Below are positions 5,268-28,491 of a stretch of DNA of 29,640 nt, one piece after another; positions within the stretch are counted from its first letter, which is position 1, and each line of letters opens with the position of its first letter. The DNA is from Candidatus Auribacterota bacterium (lineage in GTDB: Bacteria; Auribacterota; UBA6266). Position numbers and translations under genes: made by a program. Location: contig JAGLRQ010000004.1 of NCBI GenBank assembly GCA_023136205.1, forward strand, positions 1 to 29,640, in the 5' to 3' direction. The notes under the pieces are model-generated. The model was not told the origin of the DNA. It was given only the letters and a program-made list of their open reading frames with translations, and did no database searches.

Positions 5268-5297
5268 GTATGTAGTATATAATATGTAGTATGTAGC
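5268..5297. repeat. Tandem ATGTAGTAT units (period 14), inverted partner of 5378-5406
   Basis: ATGTAGTAT at 5270-5278 and 5284-5292. Its exact reverse complement ATACTACAT is at 5396-5404. By hand alignment, arm 5268-5296 matches the reverse complement of 5378-5406 at 22 of 29 positions. Confidence 0.75.
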
Positions 5298-5344
5298 TAA
5301 AGGCTGACAGCTAATTTTATTTGCTATTTCTGCCTACCGGCAGG

Positions 5345-5446
5345 CTCTGTGGTTACTTTTTCTTTTGTTCGTTTTTACAATATACTATATACGAAATACT
5401 ACATAGTGCGAAGCGAAGCGGAGCCTCCCCGGAGGGGTCTAGATAC
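5345..5446. repeat. Composite intergenic repeat: a module homologous to 24543-24608 followed by a GC-rich module homologous (inverted) to 12329-12372
   Basis: Versus 24543-24608: CTCTGTGGTTA(C/A)TTTTT 16/17, GTTTTTAC 8/8, ATACTATATAC 11/11, ATACTA(C/T)ATA(G/C) 9/11, with a 4-nt indel in the T-rich middle. Segment 5403-5446 versus the reverse complement of 12329-12372: 40/44 by hand alignment. Confidence 0.8.
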
Positions 5447-5464
5447 CAGATACTAAAATCCTGG

Positions 5465-5493
5465 TTGATTAATATCGGCACCATATGTATAAT
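5465..5493 (+). promoter_or_regulatory. Candidate sigma70-type promoter for lptFG
   Basis: TTGATT (5465-5470), 17-nt spacer, TATAAT (5488-5493). The lptF ATG is at 5504, only 10 nt after the -10 box, and no SD is visible. Confidence 0.45.
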
Positions 5494-5503
5494 TTCTGAG
5501 ATT

Positions 5504-6604
5504 ATGAAAATTTTGACAAAATACTTATTAAAAGATTTTTTTACGAATTTTATGTTTGCTCTGGGAATATTTACATTCGTTCTTCTTATAGGAAATCTTG
5601 TAGAATTAATTCAACTCCTATTGAAAGGGGTTCAGCTTGCCTTTGTTTTTAAAATGATATTTTACATTACCCCTTACCTTCTTAGCTATACCATACCGCT
5701 AACATGTTTGACCGCCGGCCTTCTGATGTTCGGAAAGCTTTCAGCAAACCATGAAATCACTGCGATGAAAGCATCCGGGCTCAGTTTATTTTATATTTCA
5801 AAGCCTGTTCTTAAATCTGCCCTTGTCATTGCAGTTATAAGTTTTATTATAGCTTCCTATATTTCCCCCTCATGCCACTACGTTATCAGAAAAAGCAAAA
5901 AGCTGGATATAAGCAAGGTCGGAAACATTAACCCGGTTAAATTAATTGAAAAAGGAGTATTCATTGAGGCATTTTACCCCTACGTAATCTACTGCGAGGA
6001 TAAGACAGACAACATCCTGAAAGATTTAATGATATTCGAAGTAAAAGAAAATTCTCCCGCTAACACAATTATCGCGAAAGAAGGAAAAATTAAATACGCC
6101 GCAAAAGATAAAACAATAAAGCTTGAGCTTAAAGACGGCAGCTTCGATGCCCCGGATCCGGAAAATCCAGAAAACTTTTTCAGGGGAAGCTTTGACAACT
6201 ACCAGCTTGAATTCAAATTACCCGAAAAGCCCAACAAATATATAGCCCGCTGTGCCAATGATATGCCCATAAGCAAACTCCTCAGAAAAATCAAAGAGTA
6301 TAAGAAAAAAGGAATTAACGCGACACCTCTTAAAGTCGAATTCAGCAGCAGGCTGGCAAGTTCAGTTTCCTGTATAATATTCACTATTATAGCAATCCCT
6401 CTGGGCATAAAGGCCCACAGAAGCGAGAAAAGCATAGGAATTGCCCTGAGCCTGGGGCTCGCAATGTGTTACTACAGTTTTATAATCCTTGCAAAGGCCC
6501 TGGACAAAAAAACCGACATCCATCCGGAATACATAGTCTGGATACCCAACATTATTCTTCTATCCCTTGGAATATTTTTATTCTGGAGAACTAAAAATAA
6601 ATGA
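5504..6604 (+). CDS. lptF: LPS export ABC transporter permease LptF
   Basis: The ORF track starts at a TTG (5321), but the first 61 codons cover intergenic repeats and a promoter. MKILTKYLLKDFFTNFMFALGIFTFVLLI from ATG 5504 is a typical LptF/LptG (YjgP/YjgQ) N-terminus. The protein has 6 hydrophobic segments with a large periplasmic insert. ATGA overlap with lptG. Confidence 0.85.
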   Translation: MKILTKYLLKDFFTNFMFALGIFTFVLLIGNLVELIQLLLKGVQLAFVFKMIFYITPYLLSYTIPLTCLTAGLLMFGKLSANHEITAMKASGLSLFYISKPVLKSALVIAVISFIIASYISPSCHYVIRKSKKLDISKVGNINPVKLIEKGVFIEAFYPYVIYCEDKTDNILKDLMIFEVKENSPANTIIAKEGKIKYAAKDKTIKLELKDGSFDAPDPENPENFFRGSFDNYQLEFKLPEKPNKYIARCANDMPISKLLRKIKEYKKKGINATPLKVEFSSRLASSVSCIIFTIIAIPLGIKAHRSEKSIGIALSLGLAMCYYSFIILAKALDKKTDIHPEYIVWIPNIILLSLGIFLFWRTKNK

Positions 6605-10098: not shown

Positions 10099-10169
10099 TT
10101 TTCTACTCCATAGTTCCTGGCTTTTACCCTGATTACTTTTACATTAAACCCATAAAAACAAGATTTCCT

Positions 10170-10198
10170 AATATAAAAAAATGAATCTCATAAGTCAA
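10170..10198 (-). promoter_or_regulatory. Candidate sigma70-type promoter for metK-ahcY
   Basis: Minus strand TTGACT (10198..10193), 17-nt spacer, TATATT (10175..10170), just downstream of the ptsI stop. This implies a leader of roughly 65 nt before the metK ATG. Confidence 0.4.
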
Positions 10199-10214
10199 GA
10201 ATGAATAGGAAAAA

Positions 10215-12032
10215 TTAAATCTGGGCATTTGATATGGGATCATCTTTTGAATATGGCATCCTGTAATTCTGCTGCATAACAAATTCCGGGGCAGTCTTTT
10301 TAAGAAGCGCTCTGGCCAGTTTCCTGACTTCATAGCTGGTACTGCATTTCAAAACCTTTTCTGAAAGCATCTGGAGACTTTTAAAAGAAGAACTTCTTAT
10401 AACCTTTTTTATCTCAGGAACAATAATCGAACTTGCACTCAACTCGTCAATGCCCATGCCCACAAGGATAAGAGTCATTTCAAGGTCACCCGCCATTTCA
10501 CCGCACATACCCACCCAGATATTTTCCGCATGTCCGTTATCTATAATACTCTTAATCAACCTTAGGACAGCGGGGTTCGCAGGCTCATAAAGGTAAGCAA
10601 CTTTCTCATTCACTCTATCTACGGCAATTGAATACTGAATAAGGTCATTCGTCCCTATGCTGAAAAAATCAACATGGCGGGCTATTATGTCCGAAGTTAT
10701 AGCCGCAGACGGAATTTCAATCATAGCACCCATTTCAATTTCCTTGTCATACGCAATTCTACTTTTATCAAGAGATGTTTTCACTTCTTCTACTATCTTA
10801 TTTGCCTCTAAAACTTCATCTACAGAGGAGATCATGGGGTACATTAACTTGACATTCCCAACCGCACTCGCTCTTAAGATTGCCCGCAGCTGTTGTTTAA
10901 AAACTTCCTGTTCTTCAAGGCAAATCCTTATGGCTCTCCATCCGAGAAACGGATTCATTTCTTTTTGGATACCAATTTGATGTGAAAATTTATCTCCTCC
11001 AATATCCAGTGTCCGTATTATCACAGGATTGGGGTAAATTTCTTCAGCAACCTTTTTATACGCAGTATACTGTTCTTCTTCCGAAGGAAGGTCCGTACGG
11101 TTAAAATAGAAAAACTCAGTCCTGTAAAGGCCAACACCTTCAGCCCCATGAGATATTACCGATGGTATGTCTGCCGGCATTTCAATATTCGCAGAAACAG
11201 AAACTCTGTAACCGTCTATCGTTTCCGCAGGAAGGTCTTTAAGTTCGGCAAGTTTTTCTGTCAACCGTTCAAATTTCGATTTTTCGATAGTATATTTGCT
11301 TAAAGACCGTTTTGAAGGATGGATAATTACCAAACCGCGGTTTCCATCAACAATAATCCTGGCGCCCGGTTTTATCTTTCCGGTAACATTATGAAGCCCC
11401 ACTACCGCGGGAATCTCCAGAGAACGCGCTATAATCGCGGTATGAGAAGTTTTACCCCCAACATCAGTAGCAAAACCCTTAACAAGCTCTTTGTGCATCA
11501 TCGCGGTATCAGAAGGGCTAAGGTCATAAGCGACAATGATCACCTCTTCCTCAAAATCCGACAGGTCCTTCTTTTTTTTACCCATCAGGTTGTAAAGGAC
11601 CCTTCTTGTAAAATCACGTATATCAGAAGCTCTTTCTCTCAGGTAATCGTCTTCCATATTGGAAAACAGTTCGACATATTTTTTCCCCACCTGCTGAAAG
11701 ATATATTCCACATTTATCTTTTCCTTTTCCAGTCTCTTAATAACCTGTTCTATCACCGACCTGTCTTCAAGAAACAATAAATGGGCGTTAAATATCTGGG
11801 CGTGTTCTTCGCCCACTTGACTGGCAATCTTATTTTGAATTCCAACTAATTCATGGCGGGTTTTTATGAGGGCTTCTTCAAACCTGGCTATCTCACCAGG
11901 AATCTGCTCCTCCGGGATCTTATACTTTGCAATAAATTCTTCTTTACTGTCAAAGAGGTAAACTTTCCCTATTACAACTCCGGGACAAACAGGTATTCCT
12001 CTGAGAACAATTTCTTTGTTCGCGGGTTTCAT
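10215..12032 (-). CDS. ptsI: Phosphoenolpyruvate--protein phosphotransferase (PTS Enzyme I)
   Basis: 605 aa. Phospho-histidine motif GGKTSHTAIIARSLEIPAVVG and PEP-utilising C-terminal domain (GTNDLIQY, GMCGEMAGD). ATGA overlap with the ptsH stop. Confidence 0.95.
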   Translation of the reverse strand: MKPANKEIVLRGIPVCPGVVIGKVYLFDSKEEFIAKYKIPEEQIPGEIARFEEALIKTRHELVGIQNKIASQVGEEHAQIFNAHLLFLEDRSVIEQVIKRLEKEKINVEYIFQQVGKKYVELFSNMEDDYLRERASDIRDFTRRVLYNLMGKKKKDLSDFEEEVIIVAYDLSPSDTAMMHKELVKGFATDVGGKTSHTAIIARSLEIPAVVGLHNVTGKIKPGARIIVDGNRGLVIIHPSKRSLSKYTIEKSKFERLTEKLAELKDLPAETIDGYRVSVSANIEMPADIPSVISHGAEGVGLYRTEFFYFNRTDLPSEEEQYTAYKKVAEEIYPNPVIIRTLDIGGDKFSHQIGIQKEMNPFLGWRAIRICLEEQEVFKQQLRAILRASAVGNVKLMYPMISSVDEVLEANKIVEEVKTSLDKSRIAYDKEIEMGAMIEIPSAAITSDIIARHVDFFSIGTNDLIQYSIAVDRVNEKVAYLYEPANPAVLRLIKSIIDNGHAENIWVGMCGEMAGDLEMTLILVGMGIDELSASSIIVPEIKKVIRSSSFKSLQMLSEKVLKCSTSYEVRKLARALLKKTAPEFVMQQNYRMPYSKDDPISNAQI

Positions 12033-12316
12033 TCTTCTCCAAATTTATTTATAAAAAGCTGTCCTAGTTCATCAATAGCTTTCTGAGCATCCTCTCCTTC
12101 TGCGATAACTTTAATTTTTGTTCCTTTCGCGGCCGCAAGCATCATAACACCCATAATGCTCTTACCGTTAATTGTTTCTCCATCTTTCATTACATGGACT
12201 TTCGCATTAAATCTATTTGCCGCCTGGACAAACATTGCCGCAGGGCGAGCATGTAAGCCAAGCTCGTTTTTAATTTCTATTTCTTTTTCAATTTTTAATG
12301 TATTTTCTTCACTCAT
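12029..12316 (-). CDS. ptsH: Phosphocarrier protein HPr
   Basis: 95 aa. His-15 motif GLHARPAA and Ser-46 motif NGKSIMGVMML (the HprK target site). Confidence 0.95.
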   Translation of the reverse strand: MSEENTLKIEKEIEIKNELGLHARPAAMFVQAANRFNAKVHVMKDGETINGKSIMGVMMLAAAKGTKIKVIAEGEDAQKAIDELGQLFINKFGEE

Positions 12317-12328
12317 AATTATAAAGCC

Positions 12329-12377
12329 GTATCTCGTCCCCTCCGGGGAGGCTCCGCTCCGCTCCGCACTATCTCGT
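12329..12377. repeat. GC-rich 32-nt core flanked by perfect 8-nt direct repeats, in the EIIA/ptsH spacer
   Basis: TATCTCGT (12330-12337), core CCCCTCCGGGGAGGCTCCGCTCCGCTCCGCAC (12338-12369), TATCTCGT (12370-12377). The core holds 3 tandem GCTCC units. Its reverse complement matches 5403-5446 at 40/44. Confidence 0.8.
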
Positions 12378-12391
12378 AGAAAAAGATGGAC

Positions 12392-12814
12392 TTATACATC
12401 TATTATTTCGATTTTTCTTTTCTTTAAATAACTCTCAGCGGTAAACACACTCCTGCGGCCGGTTCTTGTTATCTGCAAAGCCAGTTTCTTCAAGTCCTTT
12501 TCGTTTCTGTGCACAGCAAACTCCATCAGCATAGGAAGATTAACCCCTGTTACAATCTTAATTTTCTTCTTTTTAAGAATGCTCATCCCTATGTTCGCGG
12601 GGCTGCCGCCAAATATATCTACAAGAACCAAAACCCCGTCCGGGGAATCAACACTTTCTATTGCTTCCGTAAGATTCCTCTCAATATCTTCATGCTTATC
12701 CTTGTTAAGCTGAGAAACCACAGCCAATTTTTCTATCTTGCCGACTATTTCCTCAGCCGCCGATACAAGATCCCTTGCTAAATTCCCATGTGCCGCGACT
12801 ACTACTCCAATCAT
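12392..12814 (-). CDS. PTS EIIA component, mannose/fructose (Man) family
   Basis: 140 aa. MIGVVVAAHGNLARDL carries the N-terminal active-site His (AHG) typical of EIIA-Man. Start overlaps the hprK stop. No EIIB/C/D gene is nearby. Confidence 0.8.
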   Translation of the reverse strand: MIGVVVAAHGNLARDLVSAAEEIVGKIEKLAVVSQLNKDKHEDIERNLTEAIESVDSPDGVLVLVDIFGGSPANIGMSILKKKKIKIVTGVNLPMLMEFAVHRNEKDLKKLALQITRTGRRSVFTAESYLKKRKIEIIDV

Positions 12815-13785
12815 CTTTTCTTCTTCCTTTTTTTAACGCCGGCTATTTTTTTACTACCACCTGTCATTCTTTTTATTAACGAATCATTCAGATCTTTTGC
12901 CGAATTCCTTCCGAGCTTTCTAAGCCTGTGATTAAGAGCCGCAACTTCAATGATAAGAGCTACGTCCCGGCCCGGCTTAACGGGGATTACCATATAAGGA
13001 AGCTTAATGCCAAGTATGGTAAAAAAATTTTCATCAATACCGACCCTGTCATACTCTTTTTCAACATCCCAGTCTTCGAGAGAAACAACCATGTCAATTT
13101 TCTTATATTCCCTAACAGAGCCTGCTCCGAAAAGTTGTTCGATATTTATAATTCCCGGCCCTCTTATTTCCATATGGTACTTAGTCACCTCAGCGCAGTT
13201 GCCAATAAGATCTTTTCTGTCGCGCAGTTTTATAATAACAATATCATCAGATATAAGCCTGTGTCCTTTACTAACAATGGAAAGCGCACATTCACTTTTG
13301 CCAACTCCGCTCTCACCTATAATCAGAATTCCTATACCATAAACCTCGACAAGATCCCCGCTCATTGTTATCTGCGGAGAAAATTTATCCTCTAAATACA
13401 GGGTAGCCTCATTTATAAGTAATTTTGTTATTGAATTCGATCTGAAAAGAACTACACCAGTTCTATCTGCCTCCTCTATCATCTCCTTAAAGGGAACAAA
13501 ATGTCTTGTTATAATGCAGCAGGGAACTTTCTTTGAGAAAAAAGCTCTTATCATCTTAGTTCTTTCTTCCTTGTTGAGAGTCTTTAAAAAAGACATTTCA
13601 ACAAACCCTATAACCTGAATTCTCCTGTGAGGAAAGAAATCGTAATATCCAACCAGGGCTAGCCCGGGCCGATTTAAAGTCGGCTCTTTAATCTTTCTCC
13701 TCAGCCCTTTTTCGCCGCCGACAAGTTCCATCCCCAGATGGTCCTTCAAGCTATTGTAAAAATCTCTTACGGTAACCTCTTGCAT
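12811..13785 (-). CDS. hprK: HPr kinase/phosphorylase
   Basis: 324 aa. P-loop GESGVGKSE followed by LISDDIV and EIRGPGIINI, typical of HprK/P. Confidence 0.92.
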   Translation of the reverse strand: MQEVTVRDFYNSLKDHLGMELVGGEKGLRRKIKEPTLNRPGLALVGYYDFFPHRRIQVIGFVEMSFLKTLNKEERTKMIRAFFSKKVPCCIITRHFVPFKEMIEEADRTGVVLFRSNSITKLLINEATLYLEDKFSPQITMSGDLVEVYGIGILIIGESGVGKSECALSIVSKGHRLISDDIVIIKLRDRKDLIGNCAEVTKYHMEIRGPGIINIEQLFGAGSVREYKKIDMVVSLEDWDVEKEYDRVGIDENFFTILGIKLPYMVIPVKPGRDVALIIEVAALNHRLRKLGRNSAKDLNDSLIKRMTGGSKKIAGVKKRKKKR

Positions 13786-13833
13786 ATTTTACTGTTCCTC
13801 CAAAAACCTTTATCTTAATAGATCAATCCCGGC

Positions 13834-14166: not shown

Positions 14167-14201
14167 ACAATACCTCCTTTTTGCATGAGACCACAACTTA
14201 C

Positions 14202-14238
14202 ATTATAAGTTATGTCCTAATTGTAAACATTGTAAACA
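14202..14238 (-). promoter_or_regulatory. Candidate hpf promoter region: TATAAT box plus tandem 9-nt repeat
   Basis: Minus strand TATAAT (14207..14202). The plus strand has TTGTAAACA twice in tandem (14221-14229, 14230-14238), covering the -35 position. No good TTGACA-like hexamer is present. Confidence 0.3.
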
Positions 14239-14289
14239 ATATATAACACAGAGATTTTAACAAGGCAATTATTTAAAACATAAATACTT

Positions 14290-15012: not shown

Positions 15013-15030
15013 TAGTCATTTCCTCTATGT

Positions 15031-16606: not shown

Positions 16607-16632
16607 ATTTTTCCTCACAATCTAGAATATTT

Positions 16633-16705
16633 CGTATTAAGTATCGTGTATCGTGTTTAAAAACTCATTTAATACTCAATACTCACGACGCAATACGCAC
16701 AACGA
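16633..16705. repeat. Intercistronic imperfect inverted repeat built from 7-nt units (kdsD/kdsC spacer)
   Basis: Left arm CGTATTAA GTATCGT GTATCGT (16633-16654). Right arm AATACTC AATACTC ACGACGC AATACGC ACAACGA (16671-16705). About 19 of 25 positions pair, and 3 A-C mismatches on the plus strand become G-U pairs on the minus (sense) transcript. Confidence 0.75.
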
Positions 16706-17683: not shown

Positions 17684-17697
17684 TAATCCGCTCCACT

Positions 17698-18525: not shown

Positions 18526-18540
18526 TTTTCTATTCGCTCC

Positions 18541-19269: not shown

Positions 19270-19287
19270 TTTTCTAACCATATTCAA

Positions 19288-19848: not shown

Positions 19849-19868
19849 TAATATCCTTCTCTGCCTAA

Positions 19869-20861
19869 TTAGTGTTTTTGCATCACCGCTGTTCTTACTT
19901 CATCAACAGTTGTAGTCGCAGTCCCCAGTTTAGCAACAACAATTCCCGCGGCATAATTAGCTATCACCGCAGCAACTTTTATGTCTGCTCCTACCGCGAG
20001 GGCTGCTGTGAGCGAGGATATCACAGTATCGCCTGCTCCGGAAACATCATAAACTTCCCTGGCGGAGGATGAAATCTTAAATGGCTTTTTCCCCTTCTCA
20101 AAAAGACACATCCCCTTTTCACCCAGGGTCATCAGAACATATTTTGTCTTGAATTTATTCAACAATCTTTTTCCCGCATCATACAGAATATCATCCCGGT
20201 CGATATTCAGCCCGGCAAAAGAATATCCTTCATAATGATTTGGTGTAAACACCGTTGCCCCGTTTAAATTGAAAACCCGGCCCAATTTCGGATCAAAAGC
20301 AACAATTTTCTTGCTGTCTTTACACATCTTTATAATCCCGGTAACAAGCTTCTGTTGGATAAGGCCCTTTCCATAATCTTCAATTATAACAGCATTAAAA
20401 TCATTAATTTTAGTTTTAGCAAAATGCAATATCTCTTTGATGATTTTATCACTAACTTGATCTGTCTGCTCCTTATCAAACCTCACAACCTGCTGCTGAT
20501 GAGCAATTACCCTTGTCTTTACAATCGTACCCCGCTCATTTATTTTTATTACCCCTTCCAGGTTAACCTTTGATGGTTCCAGAATAGAACAAAGCCTTTC
20601 CCCATTCAAATCACCTCCAATCACACCACACATAAAAGAATAAGCACCCAGAGACATTAGGTTATTTACAACATTGGCAGCCCCACCCGGCATATAACTT
20701 TCTTTGGCAACTTTGACAACCGGAACCGGCGCTTCCGGAGAAATCCTGTTTACTTTGCCCCAGACAAAGCAGTCCAGCATCATATCCCCAACAACAAGCA
20801 TTGAGACATTTTTAATCTTATCCAGCACACGAAAAATCTCTTCTTTTTTCACTCTTTTCAC
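19869..20861 (-). CDS. hldA: D-glycero-beta-D-manno-heptose-7-phosphate kinase (RfaE domain I only, monofunctional)
   Basis: 330 aa of the ribokinase/PfkB family: VVGDMMLDCFVWGKVNRISPEAPVPVV and DVSGAGDTV. There is no C-terminal cytidylyltransferase-like (HldC) domain. Confidence 0.88.
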   Translation of the reverse strand: MKRVKKEEIFRVLDKIKNVSMLVVGDMMLDCFVWGKVNRISPEAPVPVVKVAKESYMPGGAANVVNNLMSLGAYSFMCGVIGGDLNGERLCSILEPSKVNLEGVIKINERGTIVKTRVIAHQQQVVRFDKEQTDQVSDKIIKEILHFAKTKINDFNAVIIEDYGKGLIQQKLVTGIIKMCKDSKKIVAFDPKLGRVFNLNGATVFTPNHYEGYSFAGLNIDRDDILYDAGKRLLNKFKTKYVLMTLGEKGMCLFEKGKKPFKISSSAREVYDVSGAGDTVISSLTAALAVGADIKVAAVIANYAAGIVVAKLGTATTTVDEVRTAVMQKH

Positions 20862-20938
20862 TTTTCTGTTCCCTTTTATGTTTTTAAATTCACGCTCACC
20901 CCGTTTATTTTATCATTAACGGCTATTCTTTTCCATAG

Positions 20939-23545
20939 TTAACAGACGCCGATCCTTAACATTTCTACAGCTTTTAAAGAAACCTCATTCGGTAACAAAT
21001 CCGTCATGCATTCTCCCTTTGAACAGGTTTTACTGAAGCACGGGGCACACGGCAAAGCCGATTTAAATATATAATTATCTTTCCCGACGGGGCCTGTTCT
21101 GTCAGAAGAAGTAGGCCCAAAAAGGCAAATTACCTTCTTCCCTAGTGCCGCGGCAAGATGCATTGCGCCATTATCATTTGTTATAACAAGATCGCTTAAA
21201 GACAATATACCCGCCAGTGTAAAAATATTGGTTTTACCAGCCGCATTAAAAGCCTTGTTGTGCCCGTAAATTATCCTTTCCCCGCACCCGATTTCCTCCG
21301 ATGTCCCCGCTATCATGATGCGGGCATCCACATCCTTTCGAAGGTTAAAGGCCACCTTCCTGAAATTTTCCATATTCCACCTCTTTGACTTCCACCTCGC
21401 TCCGGGAATAAGACATACTTTTGGGCCTCTGGACCCTGTTTTAGACCATAAAAGATTGCCCTGTTTTAGAGACAGATCAGGCAGCTTCAGGTCAAAAACA
21501 CAACCCTCTTTCTTACCGCAAACAATAGCAGCAAGTGAAATATACCTTTCTGCGGAGTTGGCTTCTGCTCTCCCTATTAAGCATTTTTTATTATAAAACA
21601 AAGAAGAAAATTCCCTCGCATCGGAAAACCCGGCCCTTATCTCCGCACCACTCAACCAGCTGATAATACCGCTTCTAAAAAGTCCCTGAAAATCAATACA
21701 TATATCAATTTTTTCTGAACGAATTTTAAAAATGAACCTGAAAATTTCAAAAATCGTTTTAGGCAAACATAAAAATCTTCCCCAGCTTTTCCTTTTTATC
21801 TCAAAAATCATATCAACAGCATCAACCATCGCAACAACATCTTTAAACTTATCGGAGGCCACCCAGCAAATTTTCGAATCGGGCATTGCTTTTTTAATGC
21901 ACCTGACAGCAGGAATAGTCTGGACTATATCCCCCAACGAACTCGGTTTAACAATTAGAATTTTTTTTCGAAGACCTGCCGATTTATTTTGCAACCCTGT
22001 ACCCGCGGAAAGATTTGCACCGCAAATCCGCGGGGATGTAAAACAGGCGGGGTCAGCACTTAGTTCTTTTTTCAGTTTTTGTTTCTCGCGACAAGTAATA
22101 TTCCTCAGCGAATCAAAATAAATTTCTATAAACTTTTTCCTTTCATCACCATTTATTATACCAATCAGGTTGTCAATTAACCTCTTTATATTTTTAATCT
22201 TTTGCAGCCTGCTTACACTTTGCTTAAAATAAACTCTGTCTGTATCCAATATAAAAATCTTAATCCTGCCGTTGATATTTTTCACAAACACATTTCCGGG
22301 CTTTGTATCCCTGTGATAAATCCCTTTATTATGCATATCAGAAATAAATCGAGCCGCAGAACCAAGAACATCCATTCTCTCATATTCAGATAAAGATTTT
22401 TCCCTGATATAACAATCTATTCTCTCTAAATCATTTTCAGCAATAGATAAAAAGTACCCTTCTCCTGATGAAGCTTTCACCCCAAGCATAGGTTCAGGTG
22501 TGTTTATCTTTCTTATTTCAAGTCCTATTGCCCCCTTCCATGAATCAATAGCTTTAACTCCCGAAGGGCGGCTGGGATTAACCATATTATACCTTTTTAT
22601 ATACAGATCCAAATCCCCCAGATTGACCCTTGTAATTGTAGTTTTTATATCTTCCTTTATCTTTTTCCCGGTTTTAAAAAGGTTTTTAATGTCTTTAAGA
22701 GCATCTCCGCATTTCTCTATATATTCTCTTTTACCAACACCCCGAAACCCGCTGTCTCTTATAAAACAATAATCCTCATTTTTACCAACGGCCTTGCGGT
22801 CTCTTCTTTTCCATAAATGATAAAAACTTTCGTCAGTCCCTTTCTCAATACAAGCGAATTTACTTCTAAAATCCTCTCCAAAATATCTGTAAAAAAACTT
22901 ATCCTGGATATCCTTTCCGAAGCACTCTCTTAAAAACATATTTACATTGATCAGGTTCATCTTAGAGGCAGAATAAGGAAGTGCGTCTTTATAAAACCTT
23001 AATCTATGTAAATCTATCAGAAAAAATTTTCCCTCACTTAAAAGAACATTGTCAAAATGGAAATCTTTCTGAAAAACTCCTTTCGCGTGAAGATCTTTTA
23101 CAAAATCACAAAATTCGCGAATATAGTTTAACGGCTCATCCTTGATTTTTTCCGCGAGTGTCACACTGCCCGGGACCTCCGCGGAAATAAAAATACTTCC
23201 AGACATCCTGCACTTACCCCATGTGGTACCCCACAACCCCGCGGAAGGAGATTTTCCATTGAAAGTTCCAAACGCTACCGGATCAGGAACATTTATCCCA
23301 ATCTTCTTTAATCTCAGACAATTCCCATATTCTATGCATGCCTTGTTGGTTTTAAAAACATACCTGACATGATCAAAAAATGACGGGTTAAAATATATCT
23401 TTACGTAGCAATTCAGTCTATTAAGTTCGCCCTTAAAAACTTTTCTTGCAGCCGTCTGATCTATCTTTTCCAGCATGTCAAAATCTTCAAGCAGCAACGG
23501 AAGGCCCTGAAATCCTTCTTTAACAGAATGCCATTTTATCTTCAT
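20939..23545 (-). CDS. Tri-domain fusion: two tandem Kdo/WaaP-family LPS kinase domains plus a C-terminal GT9 heptosyltransferase
   Basis: 868 aa. D1 (aa ~20-235): CYVKIYF ... LHAKGVFQKDFHFDNVLL ... FLIDLHRL. D2 (aa ~295-470): LYIKRYN ... MHNKGIYHRDTKPGNVFV ... FILDTDRV. GT9 (aa ~527-868): ILIVKPSSLGDIVQTIPAVRCIKK, IPGARWKSKRW, TNDNGAMHLAAALGKKV, PCAPCFSKTCSKGECM. Confidence 0.8.
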   Translation of the reverse strand: MKIKWHSVKEGFQGLPLLLEDFDMLEKIDQTAARKVFKGELNRLNCYVKIYFNPSFFDHVRYVFKTNKACIEYGNCLRLKKIGINVPDPVAFGTFNGKSPSAGLWGTTWGKCRMSGSIFISAEVPGSVTLAEKIKDEPLNYIREFCDFVKDLHAKGVFQKDFHFDNVLLSEGKFFLIDLHRLRFYKDALPYSASKMNLINVNMFLRECFGKDIQDKFFYRYFGEDFRSKFACIEKGTDESFYHLWKRRDRKAVGKNEDYCFIRDSGFRGVGKREYIEKCGDALKDIKNLFKTGKKIKEDIKTTITRVNLGDLDLYIKRYNMVNPSRPSGVKAIDSWKGAIGLEIRKINTPEPMLGVKASSGEGYFLSIAENDLERIDCYIREKSLSEYERMDVLGSAARFISDMHNKGIYHRDTKPGNVFVKNINGRIKIFILDTDRVYFKQSVSRLQKIKNIKRLIDNLIGIINGDERKKFIEIYFDSLRNITCREKQKLKKELSADPACFTSPRICGANLSAGTGLQNKSAGLRKKILIVKPSSLGDIVQTIPAVRCIKKAMPDSKICWVASDKFKDVVAMVDAVDMIFEIKRKSWGRFLCLPKTIFEIFRFIFKIRSEKIDICIDFQGLFRSGIISWLSGAEIRAGFSDAREFSSLFYNKKCLIGRAEANSAERYISLAAIVCGKKEGCVFDLKLPDLSLKQGNLLWSKTGSRGPKVCLIPGARWKSKRWNMENFRKVAFNLRKDVDARIMIAGTSEEIGCGERIIYGHNKAFNAAGKTNIFTLAGILSLSDLVITNDNGAMHLAAALGKKVICLFGPTSSDRTGPVGKDNYIFKSALPCAPCFSKTCSKGECMTDLLPNEVSLKAVEMLRIGVC

Positions 23546-23564
23546 TTTTAATCTTCCACTTTTT

Positions 23565-24503
23565 TCATTTGTCTATCCCCCAATTCTTTCTCAGGCCAAA
23601 AAAATGCCAGACCAGGATACCGGAAGACATAACCAGCTTTTGCTTAAATTCACGCACCGCAAACACAGTAATAATATTAAGAATAAAATACAGCATTGAC
23701 CTTACAAATAAAAGGAAACCAAGAGCAAAACACAACAAAATTTTACCAGAAAAACCGTAATATTTATCAAAATAGGAATATCTTGATATATAATATTCAA
23801 TTCTTGCTTTGAGCAGTGCTTCTCCGGCACTTTTTCCCTGAAGATGTAAAACATTGACGCCCGGAAAAATAAAAATTTTTAATCCGTTTTCCCGAACCCT
23901 GCGGCAAAAATCACTTTCCTCAAAGAAAAAGAAATATCTTTCATCAAAACCGCCCAGATCATCAAAGGCTTCTCTTTTCACAAGCATAAAAGCACCAATA
24001 AGGGTTTCAACCTCGAAAGGCTCTTTTCTTAAAAAAGCTTTTCCCTCGTATTTTTCAGGAAAAACTTTTTTAAGAAGAGACTTATTTATTATCTCGGTTA
24101 TAAAATCCGGTGTTTTGCCGAATGAATTTTGTTCTGAACCATCAGGATTAATTAACCTGGCACCACAAACAGCAGCGGAATTATCCGCCCGCATAAATTT
24201 GACAAGAGGTTTTATTGAAGCGCTCAGTTCAGCGTCACTGTTTAAAAAACATACTAACGCGCCTTCTGACTTGTTAAAACCTTTATTGCAGGCTCCGGCG
24301 AATCCTATATTCTCCCTGTTCTCAATGACTTTTACGTCCGCGAAACTGCTTTTTAACCCGGACACACTCTCATCCGCAGAACCGTTATCCACGACTATAA
24401 TTTCGTAATCAAAATCCGAAAACCGCTTAACAGAATTTATGCACCTAACTGTAAGAGCAAGAGTATTGTAATTTATGATAATAAATGAAATCTTTAAATT
24501 CAT
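23565..24503 (-). CDS. Family 2 glycosyltransferase
   Basis: 312 aa with SFIIINYNT, IIVVDNGSADES and FFFEESDFCRR motifs, plus C-terminal hydrophobic helices. Confidence 0.85.
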   Translation of the reverse strand: MNLKISFIIINYNTLALTVRCINSVKRFSDFDYEIIVVDNGSADESVSGLKSSFADVKVIENRENIGFAGACNKGFNKSEGALVCFLNSDAELSASIKPLVKFMRADNSAAVCGARLINPDGSEQNSFGKTPDFITEIINKSLLKKVFPEKYEGKAFLRKEPFEVETLIGAFMLVKREAFDDLGGFDERYFFFFEESDFCRRVRENGLKIFIFPGVNVLHLQGKSAGEALLKARIEYYISRYSYFDKYYGFSGKILLCFALGFLLFVRSMLYFILNIITVFAVREFKQKLVMSSGILVWHFFGLRKNWGIDK

Positions 24504-24522
24504 ATTTTTTACTTATTTTTTT

Positions 24523-24608
24523 TTCTCTGTGAACTTTGTGTTCTCTGTGGTTAATTTTTAGGTATTTTTTTTGTTTTTACTACATACTATATACTCAATA
24601 CTATATAC
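24523..24608. repeat. Bipartite intergenic repeat block (sugar-transferase/GT2 spacer)
   Basis: TTCTCTGTG at 24523-24531 and 24541-24549. ATACTATATAC at 24584-24594 and 24598-24608 (period 14). 24543-24608 is homologous to 5345-5406. 24523-24550 resembles the reverse complement of 28393-28419 (about 22 of 27 aligned positions). The 12-mer ATACTCAATACT is shared with 16672-16683. Confidence 0.8.
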
Positions 24609-24617
24609 CGCTTTTAC

Positions 24618-26015
24618 TCAATACGCATTCTTGAAAGACGCAAACGTCATTATAACTATCCTCAGGTCAAACATAAGCGACCAGTTCTCCATATAATAAA
24701 TGTCATATTTTGTTCTTCCTGTGATGGATGTATCACCTCTGTATCCGCTAATCTGTGCCCAGCCCGTAATGCCGGATTTTACTCTATGCCTTGCCATATA
24801 ATATGGAATTTGCTCTTTAAATTTGTATACAAAATGCGGGCGTTCAGGCCTAGGCCCAACCAGACTCATATTTCCTTTCAGAACATTCCAGAACTGAGGA
24901 AGTTCATCTATATTATACCTTCTCATAAAACAGCCGATGGGAGTTCTGCGCTCATCATTTTTTTTAGCCCAAACAGGCCCTGTTTCATCCTCAGCACCAG
25001 ATCTCATAGAGCGGAATTTAAAAAGAGTAAAAACCTTACCGTCTTCCCCTACCCTCTGCTGTTTATATAAAAGCGGCCCTTTCGAAGTTGTTTTTATAAT
25101 TATTCCCAACACCGGAGTAACGAGCAAAAAAACCATAACACCTATTAGCGAACCCGCTATATCAAAAACTCTTTTCAGGATTCTGTTGCCTACATAATCA
25201 AGCGGAAGCTCTTTCTGTCTCATAATTGGGATACCATTTATTTCTTCAAGCCCCAGGCGGGCAACAGTCATCTGCATTATATCAGGAATCATTTTCCAGG
25301 AAACCAGCTCTTTCGAACATTTAACAATAAAATCCACTATCTTTTCATGCGACAGCGTTGAAAGTGTTAAAATCATCTCATCCACAATTTTTCTTGAAAA
25401 ATATTTATCCATGTTTTCCAGTGTATCAATAACCTTAAAACCCATTATTTCACTTCCGACCATTTCAGGATGAGTCGTCAGGAAACCAATAACATTGGAA
25501 ACATACTGCGGGCTATCCCTGAAAGTAACGGCCAGCCTCGATGCTGTATCTCCCGTCCCTATTATTAGAATCCGCTTCTTTTCATGCAATTTTTCAAGCA
25601 TTCTAATCCTTATGTGACTGATCAGAAACCTGTATAAATTAATTATAATTATAGAACTAACTCCTGAGATAACAATAACCAGTGTTGAGTATTGAAAAGC
25701 CCTGTATAATGTTGAAGCCGCGAGAAGTGCCACTGCCCCCCAGAGAACAGCCCTTGTAACATTACCTGCCTGATTCCACCTTGATTCAATATTTGAAATA
25801 TTGTAAAGCCCGTAGTGCGCGAAAATCAGCATCCAGACAAATGTGGCAGCCGGAATAGCTTTCAGGTATGCGCCAAACTCCGGAATTCCTTTGTAAATCG
25901 GGAAAACAGTATAAAACCTGAAAAGATACACACAGACAAAATTAATGGAAATCAACAATGCATCACCACACAATAAAAATAACATTATCATAAAGTCTTT
26001 CTTTTTCGAATCCAC
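24618..26015 (-). CDS. Polyprenyl-phosphate sugar-phosphate transferase (large WbaP-like PGT, initiating enzyme)
   Basis: 465 aa with N-terminal TM helices, a central Rossmann-like region (ILIIGTGDTA) and a C-terminal bacterial sugar transferase domain (DELPQFWNVLKGNMSLVGPRPERP). GTG start with GGAG upstream. Confidence 0.88.
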   Translation of the reverse strand: MDSKKKDFMIMLFLLCGDALLISINFVCVYLFRFYTVFPIYKGIPEFGAYLKAIPAATFVWMLIFAHYGLYNISNIESRWNQAGNVTRAVLWGAVALLAASTLYRAFQYSTLVIVISGVSSIIIINLYRFLISHIRIRMLEKLHEKKRILIIGTGDTASRLAVTFRDSPQYVSNVIGFLTTHPEMVGSEIMGFKVIDTLENMDKYFSRKIVDEMILTLSTLSHEKIVDFIVKCSKELVSWKMIPDIMQMTVARLGLEEINGIPIMRQKELPLDYVGNRILKRVFDIAGSLIGVMVFLLVTPVLGIIIKTTSKGPLLYKQQRVGEDGKVFTLFKFRSMRSGAEDETGPVWAKKNDERRTPIGCFMRRYNIDELPQFWNVLKGNMSLVGPRPERPHFVYKFKEQIPYYMARHRVKSGITGWAQISGYRGDTSITGRTKYDIYYMENWSLMFDLRIVIMTFASFKNAY

Positions 26016-26032
26016 TATATCTTCTCCGTATT

Positions 26033-26122
26033 TAGTTATTAAGTTATTGGTTATTAGGTTATTAAGTTAACAGGTTACTCATTCAATGCTTAATAACTCA
26101 GTAACTTAGTAACTCAATAACC
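26033..26122. repeat. Inverted arrays of 8-nt GTTAnn / nnTAAC units spanning the GT4 stop codon
   Basis: GTTA-type units start at 26035, 26043, 26050, 26058, 26066 and 26074. (A/G)TAAC units are at 26092, 26100, 26108 and 26116. A perfect 9-bp inner stem joins GTTATTAAG (26058-26066) and CTTAATAAC (26089-26097). The right arm overlaps the last codons and TGA stop (26114-26116) of the GT4 gene. Confidence 0.75.
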
Positions 26123-27247
26123 TTCTTTTTTAAATTCCGTAATCTTTTCTTCCACAAATCTTCTAAACTCTTTTACAAATCTTTCGCGGTTAAATCGTTC
26201 GGCATTTTCTCTTATTAAAACCGGATTGAACAATTTTCTCTTTTCCTCAAAAATCCGGACAGCATCGATAAGAGAATCCGCATCCTGAGAATAGAAAAAT
26301 ATTCCCGTAGGATTATCTTTTCCACAACTGTTTATATCCTTCACAGTTTCAAGCTGTCCGCCTTTCCCATAAGCAATAACAGGTTTCCCCGATGCCTGCG
26401 CTTCAACCGGAGTTATACCAAAATCTTCTTCCCCGGGAAAGATAAATGACCGGCATCTGCTGTAAAAATCGGCCAGCTTTTCATCACTCACCCAGCCAAC
26501 AAATTTTATGTTGGGTTTCGCCATTTTTCTAAGTTTCTTTTCATCCTGTCCTTTTCCTATCACAATAAGCGGCTTCCCAAGCCTGTTAAAAGCTTCTATT
26601 GCAATATCCACCCTTTTATATGGAGCAAAAGCGCTTACAATAAGGTAATAATCTTCCTCTCTTTTTGAATAAAACGCGTCAATATCAACAGGAGGATATA
26701 TTACCACAGCATCTCTCTCATATCTCGTCTTAATTCTCCGGGCAACATTCATGGAATTAGCTATAAAGTAAGAAACCCTGCCGGTAGTGCGTTTATCCCA
26801 TCTGTCGATAAAATCAAGCGCCGGTTTTAAAAGCGCATGCTTTACAGCTCCGGCTTTGCCTCTTTTAAAATATTGCTCAGACATATCAGAAACATACCGC
26901 ACCGGCGTATGACAGTAACATACATGAAGATTCCCTTTGCCAGGTATTGCTCCTTTTGCCGCACAGTGACTACTGCTTATTACTATTTCATAAGCGGACA
27001 GGTCAAAACTTTCAACTGCCTTAGGGAAAAATGGAAGATAATACCTGTAATATTTCTGAATACCCGGAAACTTCTGAACAAATGAAGTAATTATCTTATG
27101 TTTCTCAATTTTTTTTGAAACAGTTCCGGGTATGTGAATAAGTGTATAAATGTCCGCTTCCGGAAAAACATCGCATATTGATTCAAGACATTTTTCACCG
27201 CCTCTCATACCGGTCAACCAGTCATGTACAATTGCAACCTTTTTCAT
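26114..27247 (-). CDS. Family 4 (GT-B) glycosyltransferase
   Basis: 377 aa with N-terminal VAIVHDWLTGMRGGEK and the E-x7-E region EEDFGITPVEAQASGKPVIA. ATGA overlap with the upstream GT4. Confidence 0.85.
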   Translation of the reverse strand: MKKVAIVHDWLTGMRGGEKCLESICDVFPEADIYTLIHIPGTVSKKIEKHKIITSFVQKFPGIQKYYRYYLPFFPKAVESFDLSAYEIVISSSHCAAKGAIPGKGNLHVCYCHTPVRYVSDMSEQYFKRGKAGAVKHALLKPALDFIDRWDKRTTGRVSYFIANSMNVARRIKTRYERDAVVIYPPVDIDAFYSKREEDYYLIVSAFAPYKRVDIAIEAFNRLGKPLIVIGKGQDEKKLRKMAKPNIKFVGWVSDEKLADFYSRCRSFIFPGEEDFGITPVEAQASGKPVIAYGKGGQLETVKDINSCGKDNPTGIFFYSQDADSLIDAVRIFEEKRKLFNPVLIRENAERFNRERFVKEFRRFVEEKITEFKKEGY

Positions 27248-28347
27248 TGATCTGAAACTCTCCTGTAAAGATTTAACGTCTTTTCAGCCATCTTTTCCAG
27301 TGTAAAGGACTTGACTCTCTCTTGTCCCTTCTTAATAAGTTTCTGCCTAAGATCCCTGTTTTTCAACAGTTTTGCCATTATACAGGCAAAGCCCTCAAAA
27401 TCAGAGGAAGAAACCATAAGCCCGGCGTCACCAACTATCTCAGGCAATGAAGAGCTGTCTGCTGTAACCACAGGAACTCCAAGCGCCATCGCCTCCAGGG
27501 GCGGATATCCAAAACCTTCATAAAACGAAGGGAAAACAAGGAGTTCGGAAGCCTTATATGCCGAATATAAATCTTTCTCCTGCAAATTATTAAAACAGTA
27601 AGTTTTTCCTTTCAATAAAGGGAAATTTCTTTCTATAAATATTTTATCTACCCCTGATATTACCATGGCAAGATTATCAAAGCCCATGGCCTTAAGTTTC
27701 GAATAAGCTTTTACCGCGACAACAAGATTTTTATGAGGTTTTTCGTTCCCCACACACATAATATAATCTTCGCTTACACCAAATTTTTCTTTCATATAAG
27801 TCTTTGCCTGGCTAACAGCTTTTTTCTCTATAGTTTTAATATCCACCCCATTGAAAATCACTTCTACTTTAGTCGCGGGGAGTTTAAAAATCTTACAAAT
27901 ATCCACTTTAGAATTTTGAGAAACAGTAATAACCTTTTTCGCATTCTGAGCCGACTTACCGACAATATATTGGTAATAAAGCTTATGAAATAGTGTATAG
28001 TCCTGTGGGAATTTAACATGTATCAAATCATGGATTGTCATAATAAAAGGAACCTTTAGAAAAACCGGCGCGGAAAAAGTCGGTATATGATACAAATCCG
28101 GTGCCAGTTTTTCCAACACCCGCGGCATTAAAATTTGCTCCTTGATGGAATACATGGATATGTCAGTTTCAAAAAGTTCCATATTAGGAAAAGAAAAATC
28201 AATAATATGCCCCGGCCTGACTAAAACAACATATTGCGTTTCGCGGTCTATTTGCGCTAAAGCCTTTATGAGATTATAGGTATGCACCGCAATCCCATGA
28301 GTTTTAGTAGTAAGCATTCTTCCGTCTATAACAATTTTCATCTTCAC
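27244..28347 (-). CDS. Family 4 (GT-B) glycosyltransferase
   Basis: 367 aa with E-x7-E region YEGFGYPPLEAMALGVPVVT. The ORF track start is GTG 28347. ATG 28341, preceded by AGGTGA, is an equally plausible start. Confidence 0.85.
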   Translation of the reverse strand: MKMKIVIDGRMLTTKTHGIAVHTYNLIKALAQIDRETQYVVLVRPGHIIDFSFPNMELFETDISMYSIKEQILMPRVLEKLAPDLYHIPTFSAPVFLKVPFIMTIHDLIHVKFPQDYTLFHKLYYQYIVGKSAQNAKKVITVSQNSKVDICKIFKLPATKVEVIFNGVDIKTIEKKAVSQAKTYMKEKFGVSEDYIMCVGNEKPHKNLVVAVKAYSKLKAMGFDNLAMVISGVDKIFIERNFPLLKGKTYCFNNLQEKDLYSAYKASELLVFPSFYEGFGYPPLEAMALGVPVVTADSSSLPEIVGDAGLMVSSSDFEGFACIMAKLLKNRDLRQKLIKKGQERVKSFTLEKMAEKTLNLYRRVSDQ

Positions 28348-28392
28348 CTAAATACGTTCTACATAAATATTTAAAAAACTTTTTTTAATTTT

Positions 28393-28491
28393 GCCACAGA
28401 GACTCAGAGTTCACAGAACTATTTTAAAATATTTTATATATTATAATTCTTGTTTTTCTTTGTTTCTCCTGAGCCTCAGTGTCTCCGTGGC
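28393..28491. repeat. Intercistronic inverted repeat of 8-nt units with an AT-rich centre (GT9/GT4 spacer)
   Basis: Left arm CCACAGAG ACTCAGAG TTCACAGA (28394-28417). Right arm CTCCTGAG CCTCAGTG TCTCCGTG (28466-28489). The 11-bp terminal stem 28393-28403 / 28481-28491 has one A-C on the plus strand that is G-U on the minus (sense) transcript. The right arm ends 1 nt from the GT9 stop codon. Confidence 0.78.

Follow-up and report, generated by a model that had tools for sequence, protein, structure and literature searches.

What are the stuttering, low-complexity repeats that occupy six intergenic spacers in a 29,640-nt stretch of the genome of a Candidatus Auribacterota bacterium (contig JAGLRQ010000004.1 of assembly GCA_023136205.1; the whole stretch is termed the window herein), and how did they come to be there? 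An initial annotation, made from the letters alone, had placed modules of short degenerate units in the spacers at 5.3, 12.3, 16.6, 24.5, 26.0, and 28.4 kb, and all of these modules were recovered in the present analysis. We consider it probable that the six spacers hold a family of selfish, non-autonomous mosaic repeats, shared by Aureabacteria/Auribacterota and Omnitrophota, whose blocks are copied into tolerant sites and exchanged there as cassettes. This family is apparently undescribed, miniature, and fast-evolving; full-text literature searches returned no prior description of Omnitrophota repeats or of the core sequence introduced below.

A 291-kb metagenome scaffold (ENA ERZ23498405, ZHAN22-2 scaffold_5) contains the window in reverse-complement orientation, and the DNA of the window was also present in the metagenome-assembled genome (MAG) GCA_030639325.1 and several more assemblies at 99.8-100% identity. 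NCBI protein records for the window carry the name 'Candidatus Aureabacteria bacterium', and the hosts of the family are called Aureabacteria/Auribacterota and Omnitrophota here. Tandem Repeats Finder (TRF) identified nine arrays with a period of 5-9 nt and at least three copies in the window, eight of which (5268-5296, 5376-5405, 12351-12367, 16671-16699, 24523-24549, 24578-24608, 26029-26077, and 26089-26121) fell within the six spacers, which make up ~7% of the window; the ninth, at 12273-12294, is coding DNA. Likewise, nine of ten arrays in the flanking loci were intergenic, where intergenic DNA represents 5-8%. Each of the six spacers carries tandem degenerate units of 7-9 nt, and in four of them inverted arms surround an A/T-rich centre.

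To evaluate similarity between spacers, all 14 were aligned with one another by the Smith-Waterman method in both orientations, and the scores were compared with those of 60 dinucleotide-preserving shuffles, which served as the only control and reached a maximum score of 34. Three pairs scored above every shuffle: 5403-5446 versus the reverse complement of 12329-12372 (score 70), for which the 40/44 identity first reported was reproduced; 5345-5406 versus 24543-24608 (score 57), with 52 identical positions over 62/66 nt and one 4-nt gap; and 5260-5301 versus the reverse complement of 24575-24616 (score 42). Two of the four cross-locus matches listed in the initial annotation, those scoring 70 and 57, therefore withstood the shuffling control that it had proposed. 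Its two others were less decisive. The pairing of 24523-24550 with the reverse complement of 28393-28419 was present (23 of 27-28 positions identical), but its score of 33 was borderline as a single best match, yet above the shuffled fourth and fifth ranks, and the 12-mer shared by 16672 and 24591 was exact, but by itself at chance level (score 24).

A GC-rich core of 28-33 nt, GTGCG(RAGCG)nRAGCC-TCCCC-RGA-GGGGA, was found at both 5.4 and 12.3 kb. It is composed of a 5-bp stem (TCCCC/GGGGA) with a 3-nt loop, preceded by 20 nt of unpaired pentamer stutter at the 5' end. We collected 14 independent copies, 12 of which had two or fewer mismatches to GTGCGGAGCGAAGCGGAGCCTCCCCGGAGGGGA (33 nt) in a Hamming scan; of the two variants, L079 has a short core that lacks one pentamer and carries the loop AGA, and L062 has a long one into which an extra GC hairpin is inserted. 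The hosts are Aureabacteria (two copies in the window, L075, and L079), Omnitrophota MAGs (L017, L048, and L051), one MAG labelled Planctomycetia (L009), and unbinned metagenome contigs, and the core-bearing contigs range from 39% to 54% G+C. When one genome per species was scanned with the 18-mer GGAGCCTCCCCGGAGGGG, 47 single matches were obtained, mostly in GC-rich genomes without the extended core, and the true cores, containing the whole 33 nt, came from three Candidatus Omnitrophota MAGs and the MAG labelled Planctomycetia. A metagenome scan with a 20-mer returned 16 loci, including six further independent cores (contigs of ~65% GC were unrelated), and sister strains together with the flank of the window scaffold supplied two further copies. 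Additional copies, on which the initial annotation had made its case depend, were thus found in the flanks of the same scaffold, at other loci of sister strains, and in other candidate phyla. The core pattern had 0 matches in viral contigs, and the 5.3-kb composite matched neither plasmids nor phages. All 14 cores were single, with no inverted second core in the flanks shown.

The position of the core is precise. In all copies it interrupts a 7-8-nt array exactly in phase, such that removal of the core plus one A leaves the array continuous. Flanking direct repeats of 8-10 nt were observed at all 13 of the cores that were scored, five of them perfect, against a control in which perfect repeats of at least 8 nt occurred at 2 in 10,000 positions; the flanks of L062, read by eye, are ACTCTCTA on one side and ACTCGCTA on the other. 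The array units around cores vary by locus (ACGAGAT, ACGCAGC, CACAACG, GTCACAAA, ACAAGGTC, ACGCAAT, and others) with a few recurring types, and these unit types also occur core-free in the other spacers of the window.

Comparison with syntenic relatives revealed how rapidly the modules change. The relatives were L075, a strain with genes 96-98% identical to those of the window; L080 (~96%); the sister species L069 and L097 (90-96%); and L072 and L098, which belong to a different genus (65-74%). L078 is flanking DNA of the window's own scaffold. Between the window and L069, ordinary spacers (lptB to hpf, upstream of hldE, and ptsI to metK) showed ~90% conservation. The module spacers had been expected to be conserved in close relatives too; they were instead replaced wholesale at 96-98% gene identity and, being swapped between identical coding flanks, constitute the least conserved DNA of the region. 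The spacer between EIIA and HPr exists as three unrelated alleles, namely, the core with ACGAGAT units in the window and L075, a foldback built from other units in L069, and an AC-type array by itself in L080, and its core is absent in L072. Between kdsD and kdsC, the stutter arms of the window are replaced by a core in L075, in which the genes are 97% identical, and by a third sequence in L069, and between the GT4 glycosyltransferase and sugar transferase genes the octamer foldback of the window gives way to a different element in L075 and L069. The EIIA-HPr allele of L080 is ~40/48 identical to L078 20888-20981, a non-orthologous spacer of the window genome. In L097 the 5.3-kb foldback is kept and 20 unrelated bases replace the core and array of the window (49 nt).

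More distant relatives are emptier. Spacers of L072 measure 19, -11, and 23 nt where those of the window measure 98, 114, and 75 nt, and the tRNA-Val/lptF spacer of L098 has 147 nt rather than 311 nt and no foldback, with a block of ~190 nt missing. One different-genus genome nevertheless has modules in the thrS-infC spacer, namely, a foldback of the module C type and an octamer array without mismatches. More spacer alleles were sought via kdsC, lptF, and the sugar transferase, and only the window's own allele was returned. At tolerant sites, blocks are thus copied in and exchanged as cassettes; their turnover is faster than 3% coding divergence; one block occurs at non-orthologous loci; and the sites are empty in a more distant relative. 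These results support the earlier proposal that modules are shuffled between loci as in E. coli BIMEs (bacterial interspersed mosaic elements), which the family also resembles in being a major source of intergenic polymorphism. Such wholesale replacement of spacers is better explained by mobile DNA than by conservation of an RNA structure.

The modules are not limited to spacers. In Omnitrophota-type contigs, the core and its arrays lay in frame inside long open reading frames (ORFs), including four Pfam-confirmed enzymes: a MurF-type Mur ligase, a polysaccharide deacetylase, a RimO/MiaB-type radical SAM enzyme, and PrmC. The inserts were located between domains or at a domain edge, and all three sense frames were used (SAERSGASPEGT, CVAKRSLPGGD, and VRSEAEPPRRG), the core being stop-free in all six frames. 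Among proteins retrieved from the protein collection with the three peptides encoded by the core, none had three 5-residue words in common with them. Core and arrays are tolerated in frame in enzyme linker regions of these other lineages, and the description of the modules as confined to intergenic spacers holds for eight of the nine arrays in the window, but not for Omnitrophota genes. The arm at 26.1 kb was correctly described as crossing a stop codon: the replaced block there provides the last 8 codons and stop of the GT4 gene at 26114-27247 (ITEFKKEGY, then stop), the protein ending in ...EEKITEFKKEGY in the window versus ...EEKV in L075 and L069, with DNA identity ending at GAAGAAAA. Relative to surrounding genes, 11 cores are in sense orientation, two are antisense (L009 and L062, the latter core forming the tail of ruvC), and one is ambiguous (L065). 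A universal sense orientation was dropped on account of these three; sense orientation is a trend and no rule.

Several other observations were made at module-bearing or neighbouring sites. In the Omnitrophota MAG contig JBDRSA010000007.1 (L017, 63-7010), an open frame of 2315 aa is rich in small GC hairpins, among them TCGCC-TACC-GGCGA and TCGCC-TGCA-GGCGA. ACGAYAT stutters come after each hairpin, and the translation reads ...RESPTGEKNDIRHTIYDIRE...; this frame spans an antisense toxin-antitoxin-like gene pair and may not be one real gene. In L069, the ptsI-metK spacer (~17560-17700, orthologous to window 10099-10214) contains an extra insertion of ~149 nt with two GC hairpins (GCAAAATCTGCCCGAAGGGCC... 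and GGGGTATCCCTTTTAGGGAT), which is of a different kind and has no counterpart in the window or L075. The L075 assembly has N-runs at the sugar-transferase-GT2 module spacer and the kinase/GT9 junction (3134-3221 and 5642-5741), and population heterogeneity could be the cause of these breaks at variable module sites. The GT4-sugar transferase spacer of L075 (~1640-1660) includes AAGTGCGGT followed by a T-run, which we take to be identical to the core of the Haemophilus uptake signal sequence, probably by coincidence.

How might such a family be built and spread? Three kinds of block can be recognised. The first comprises the degenerate 7-9-nt arrays, usually GT-rich on the 5' side with an AC-rich complement on the 3' side, serving as foldback arms around an A/T-rich centre, and the foldbacks are often closed by a clamp, AAAGCNGT...ACNGCTTT. 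The second comprises arms that share a conserved sequence (module C), for which the alignment of six arms from four loci in two genera gave the consensus RCCACAGAG-ACACAGA-GTTCACAGAG; arms of the other foldbacks are locus-specific. The third comprises the short GC hairpin cores, placed in phase within an AC-type array. Spread may proceed through a copying mechanism that targets, or creates, short tandem units, and the in-phase position of the core could reflect insertion at unit boundaries, a 7-9-nt target duplication, or short-homology gene conversion between like arrays. The core is near-identical in MAGs that bear different phylum labels, which implies that a conserved trans-acting partner constrains it. 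If the host is affected at all, this is probably incidental: transcripts of the lipopolysaccharide (LPS), phosphotransferase system (PTS), and polysaccharide clusters likely include the elements as hairpins, which may alter mRNA stability or processing.

Several results weigh against a selfish mosaic family. As the initial annotation stated for the window, no transposase or RAYT domain was detected, either there or in the surrounding 46.6 kb of the 291-kb scaffold, and no other candidate enzyme was found in that stretch. The core has no terminal inverted repeats, and the length of its flanking repeat equals the local array period plus one base; because flanking repeat length tracks the array in this way, the repeat may simply mirror array periodicity, and target-site duplication was downgraded. 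None of the comparisons yielded a clean pair of filled and empty sites, all of them showing replacement, and in the 18-mer scan of the genome collection the Omnitrophota genomes were matched once each and the window's own species was unmatched. Finally, the centre of the 5.3-kb foldback is far better conserved than its arms (1 change/75 nt versus L097, against 8 changes/60 nt in the arms), and pairing survives four of the arm substitutions by way of G-U, which hints at function at this locus at least.

Host function is the leading alternative, although we regard it as unlikely. Foldbacks and cores would be intercistronic hairpins, selected by the host to set mRNA stability, processing, or relative expression in LPS, PTS, and polysaccharide operons, with sequence free to drift while the hairpin stays, like REP/BIME at malE-malF in E. 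coli. The elements do lie between co-directional genes, the core is on the sense strand in 11 of ~14 placements, and the arms at 5262-5411, 26016-26125, and 28348-28492 fold far better than shuffles (z -3.2 to -6.8). The GT4-sugar transferase alleles of L069 and L075 also keep their hairpin via a paired change (TAGTA/TACTG to TAGCA/TGCTA). The inverted-arm construction described initially is real in four spacers and exceeds shuffled folds at 5.3, 26.0, and 28.4 kb, but the spacers at 12.3, 16.6, and 24.5 kb fold no better than shuffles. Strand preference is inconsistent as well. At 5.3 kb, wobble pairs are more numerous on the plus strand (10 versus 2, in addition to the four G-U-preserving substitutions); the minus strand, which is the sense strand, is favoured only at 16.6 kb (6 versus 1), and neither strand is favoured at 26.0 or 28.4 kb; the 26.0-kb element is better as antisense and the 28.4-kb element neutral. 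It had been argued that A-C mismatches of the two best hairpins become G-U on the sense (minus) transcript, but both fold better as plus strand (-45 versus -35 kcal/mol at 5.3 kb and -28.8 versus -24.5 kcal/mol at 26.0 kb), and selection on RNA structure is weakly supported.

A conserved RNA structure agrees poorly with the observations that one spacer can be a foldback, a bare array, or a core depending on the strain, that the elements are gone in L072 (spacers of -11 to 23 nt), and that cores lie in frame within enzymes and, in two cases, in antisense orientation. Promoter-like and terminator-like sites were not enriched. Intrinsic terminators were rejected separately, as a consensus scan for promoters and terminators over 12000-29640 placed no terminator-like site in the covered spacers (17 such sites overall versus 13.5 expected from shuffles) and neither a promoter-like nor a terminator-like site in the centre of the 28.4-kb foldback. 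Rfam 15, applied to the whole window at gathering thresholds, reported tRNA-Val only, and the best sub-threshold match to 5200-5520 at E up to 1 was a snoRNA (E = 0.86).

The modules could also have arisen, and be remade, where they stand, if replication slippage and template switching at quasi-palindromes acted on A/T-rich spacers free of constraint and nothing passed from one locus to another. Much of the anatomy agrees with such an origin: units are degenerate and locus-specific, arrays are expected of slippage, arms pair in several registers, the pentamer number of the core varies, and turnover is very fast. Local generation fails, however, on a 33-nt sequence with two or fewer mismatches in 12 unrelated contexts under different phylum labels, on the 40-50-nt matches between non-orthologous spacers, and on the module C arm sequence common to two genera. 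As the sole cause it is contradicted by these sequence comparisons, and we assign it a low probability; selfish mosaic repeats are favoured because slippage alone cannot yield the cross-locus matches or a core found under several phylum labels.

Another reading would make the 7-9-nt units binding sites of a DNA- or RNA-binding protein, for instance a multimeric RNA-binding regulator or, as is the case for BIMEs, a nucleoid, gyrase- or IHF-like factor. The periodic units have a loose consensus (AC-N4-5-A on one strand, T-N4-5-GT on the other) and lie in regulatory DNA, and the core is strongly conserved, like the sites of conserved proteins. The units nevertheless differ widely among loci and among alleles at one locus, their 7-9-nt period mismatches the helical repeat, the elements are dispensable in relatives and occur in coding sequence, and no candidate protein is known, all of which makes binding arrays very improbable. 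Mis-assembled spacers or chimeric joins in metagenome contigs, which the N-runs of L075 at the sugar-transferase-GT2 spacer and one other site might suggest, can be set aside almost entirely, as the window spacers are base-identical in independent assemblies (ENA, NCBI, and Logan, several samples) and cores occur in unrelated projects.

A bolder and rather doubtful conjecture is that the 33-nt core is the smallest mobile DNA seen, an oligonucleotide-sized element of CRISPR-spacer length inserted by a phylum-spanning enzyme at staggered cuts 7-9 bp apart, the stutter arrays being insertion or excision footprints or a product of the same machinery. If this were true, a single new mechanism of transposition or integration would have generated the arrays, foldbacks, and in-frame peptide inserts of both Omnitrophota and Aureabacteria.

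The coordinates of the modules are collected in the table below. The genes around them are ordinary housekeeping and envelope genes, almost all on the minus strand: pheS, L20, L35, infC, thrS, tRNA-Val, lptFG (plus strand), ahcY, metK, ptsI, HPr, EIIA, hprK, hpf, lptBAC, kdsCDAB, gmhB, hldE, and a run of glycosyltransferases.

Table. Positions and anatomy of the repeat modules in the six spacers of the window (I and D designate inverted and direct repeats).
Feature	Position	Strand	Basis and remarks
Left boundary block TTGTCAATAGAAAAACGATAGAAGCCGT, including TTGTCAAT, the -35 region (TTGACA on minus strand) of a putative tRNA-Val promoter, and AAGCCGT, the clamp motif ahead of the stutter arms	5242..5269	+	Read from sequence; near-identical 28-nt block starts the EIIA-HPr spacer of L069; TTGTCAAT equally far from the tRNA in L098, which lacks the element
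Left arm of 5.3-kb foldback, GT-rich heptamers (GTATGTA GTATATA ATATGTA GTATGTA)	5268..5297	+	TRF period 7, 4.1 copies; I5 with 5373-5405, fold z = -4.3, plus strand
Centre of 5.3-kb foldback: GC hairpin CTGCC-TACC-GGCAG (5330-5343), then CTCTGTGGTTA and a T-rich run	5298..5372	+	Best-conserved part between lineages; hairpin type also twice in L017, as TCGCC-TACC-GGCGA
Right arm of 5.3-kb foldback, AC-rich heptamers (ACAATAT ACTATAT ACGAAAT ACTACAT A)	5373..5405	+	TRF period 7, 4.3 copies; I5; D4 with 24565-24607, 84%
Core copy 1, GTGCGAAGCGAAGCGGAGCC-TCCCC-GGA-GGGGT	5406..5438	+	2 mismatches to 33-nt consensus; flanks ACTACATA and TCTAGATA
AC-type array after core 1 (TCTAGAT ACCAGAT AC)	5438..5453	+	Read from sequence; first base shared with core 1
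Clamp ACGGCTTT and right-hand unit ACGAGATA, adjoining HPr start codon	12323..12337	-	Clamp and unit align with the L069 foldback of this spacer, at its right end
Core copy 2, GTGCGGAGCGGAGCGGAGCCTCCCCGGAGGGG (last A of 33-mer shared with flanking unit)	12338..12369	-	1 mismatch to consensus; 40/44 versus copy 1; identical in 8 more assemblies of window strain and sister strains
Left-hand unit ACGAGATA	12370..12377	-	Perfect 8/8 direct repeat of 12330-12337
GT-rich arm of 16.6-kb spacer (CGTATTAAGTATCGTGTATCGTGT)	16633..16656	+	TRF 16641-16656; minus strand pairs with 16671-16704, 6 G-U pairs; entire spacer differs in L069 and in L075, the latter with a core
AC-rich arm of 16.6-kb spacer (AATACTC AATACTC ACGACGC AATACGC ACAACG)	16671..16704	+	TRF period 7 and 14; module type also in L078 20888-20981 and L080 EIIA-HPr spacer
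Module C arm (TTCTCTGTG AACTTTGTG TTCTCTGTG GTTA), single, no local partner	24523..24553	+	TRF period 9; AGGGTCC units in its place in L069
AC-type heptamers (ACTACAT ACTATAT ACTCAAT ACTATAT ACC), ending in clamp ACCGCTTTTAC adjoining stop codon of sugar transferase gene	24579..24617	+	TRF period 7, 4.4 copies; D4, I2; this half of spacer ~88% conserved in L069
GT-rich octamer arm of 26.0-kb foldback (TATTTAGT TATTAAGT TATTGGT TATTAGGT TATTAAGT TAAC)	26029..26073	+	TRF period 8, 5.2-5.5 copies; foldback z = -6.8 plus strand, -4.3 minus strand
AC-rich octamer arm (26089-26122) and rest of replaced block	26089..26146	+	TRF
Module C arm, left arm of 28.4-kb foldback (GCCACAGAGACTCAGAGTTCACAGAAC)	28393..28419	+	Fold z = -4.0 and -4.4; module C alignment
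A/T-rich centre of 28.4-kb foldback	28420..28463	.	Read from sequence
Module C arm, right arm of 28.4-kb foldback (TTCTCCTGAGCCTCAGTGTCTCCGTGGC)	28464..28491	+	Ends 1 nt from stop codon of upstream gene

By eye, near-consensus divergent promoters flank the 5.3-kb element, at 5215-5250 on the minus strand for tRNA-Val (TTGACA-17-TAATAT) and at 5465-5493 on the plus strand for lptF (TTGATT-17-TATAAT), and the module block of ~190 nt that is missing in L098 fits exactly between them. No recognisable Shine-Dalgarno sequence precedes the ATG of the HPr gene (ACGGCTTTATAATTATG; window 12317-12329 and orthologues) in any of the window, L075, and L069, and GGAG-type sites are present at the neighbouring genes. 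A Kdo/WaaP-type kinase and a GT9 heptosyltransferase form one ORF of 868 aa at 20939-23545 (especially 21967-22110) and one of 881 aa in L069; they are two genes in L072 (483 + 351 aa) and L076 (503 + 346 aa, with a 115-nt spacer), and the linking stretch of ~150 nt is an N-run in L075. Some 13 kb beyond window position 1, a gene-free stretch of 244 nt (L078 13744-13987) directly follows zapA and precedes a RarA-type ATPase and 5-formyltetrahydrofolate cyclo-ligase; by this position, the classic one for 6S RNA (ssrS), it may be a candidate locus of that RNA.

To our knowledge, very small dispersed repeats have been described from few bacterial groups and their spread is mostly unsolved, REP/RAYT being a partial exception, and the SDR/STRR elements of cyanobacteria (small dispersed repeats and short tandemly repeated repetitive sequences) are still unexplained since 2008, as far as we know. 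The modules described here would provide a second, unrelated case of a hairpin element in phase within tandem heptamers or octamers. The 33-nt core offers a sharp marker for phylogenetic profiling toward the responsible enzyme, and turnover is quick enough to be followed between co-occurring strains in public metagenomes. Additionally, the modules would account for part of the poor intergenic assembly in these candidate phyla, as at the N-runs in L075, and for odd low-complexity peptide inserts in their enzymes; such spacers should not be taken for conserved regulatory RNAs.

With regard to known systems, a CRISPR array was rejected, the two cores being single and 7 kb apart and the tandem units being degenerate and 5-9 nt long, and an integron attC site and a small RNA gene were rejected on anatomy. 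Like the arrays here, the GGGNATC heptamers of Xanthomonas and Nostoc are abundant, tandem, variable in unit number, and over-represented between co-directional genes near stop and start codons (PMC4692102). They represent one G-quadruplex-forming unit type, whereas many types occur here, which are not G-rich and which include inverted arms and embedded cores.

Rickettsia palindromic elements, reportedly described by Ogata et al. in 2000, are said to be small repeats inserted in frame in protein genes and translated as an extra peptide in tolerant regions. The in-frame inserts in the Mur ligase, polysaccharide deacetylase, RimO/MiaB-type enzyme, and PrmC are alike in this respect, but the Rickettsia elements are palindromes of 100-150 nt without tandem heptamer flanks, and the only coding effect seen in the window was the replaced C-terminal tail at 26.1 kb. 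Bacterial miniature inverted-repeat transposable elements (Correia/NEMIS, ERIC, RUP, and Nezha) and eukaryotic foldback transposons share with the modules their inverted arms, A/T-rich centre, size of ~80-200 nt, presence/absence polymorphism, and non-coding nature, and the six module C arms resemble conserved terminal inverted repeats. In eukaryotic foldback elements, too, arms are made of short tandem units. Most arms here are locus-specific, however, the foldbacks have no clear target-site duplication, and no parent insertion sequence is known.

The likeness to BIMEs and their REPs (repetitive extragenic palindromic sequences) lies in behaviour: both are short extragenic mosaics of few motif types that form single-strand hairpins, generate intergenic polymorphism, and lie between co-transcribed genes. 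A REP is an imperfect palindrome, ~20-35 nt long, that carries a conserved GTAG at its 5' end; REPs act as inverted doublets (REPINs) and cluster beside a RAYT gene (PMC3116915). The core here begins with GTGCG rather than a 5' GTAG palindrome, consists of a 5-bp hairpin after a pentamer stutter, and stands single inside tandem arrays with no RAYT gene in 46.6 kb. Membership in REP, BIME, or REPIN families, which the initial annotation had suggested by likeness, was therefore not supported, since neither the GTAG palindrome, the doublets, nor the extragenic restriction was found. The core is in frame inside four Pfam-verified enzymes, and we know of no reports of REPs in frame in genes.

In anatomy, the closest comparison is with the SDRs of heterocyst-forming cyanobacteria, reportedly hairpin elements of 21-27 nt that are often embedded in tandem heptamers (STRR), as described by Elhai et al. 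in 2008; the heptamer arrays themselves are said to go back to Mazel et al. in 1990. Both systems comprise tiny non-coding hairpin elements (21-27 nt there, 28-33 nt here) within heptamers or larger mini-elements, with precise insertion, variation among related genomes, and mostly intergenic arrays, and the core, at less than ~35 nt with a hairpin, was in phase in 7-8-nt arrays in 13/13 scored cases. SDR5 is inserted precisely into HIP1, and SDRs are restricted to Nostocaceae (PMC4390886, PMC5861425). The core, in contrast, is near-identical across MAGs labelled as different phyla. Arrays here serve as inverted foldback arms as well, and core and arrays occur in frame in conserved enzymes. The phyla are different and the two are set side by side by description, not sequence; because its hosts are Aureabacteria and Omnitrophota, the core is at most an analogue of SDRs. 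By analogy, then, the family appears to resemble BIMEs in behaviour and SDR/STRR elements in anatomy.

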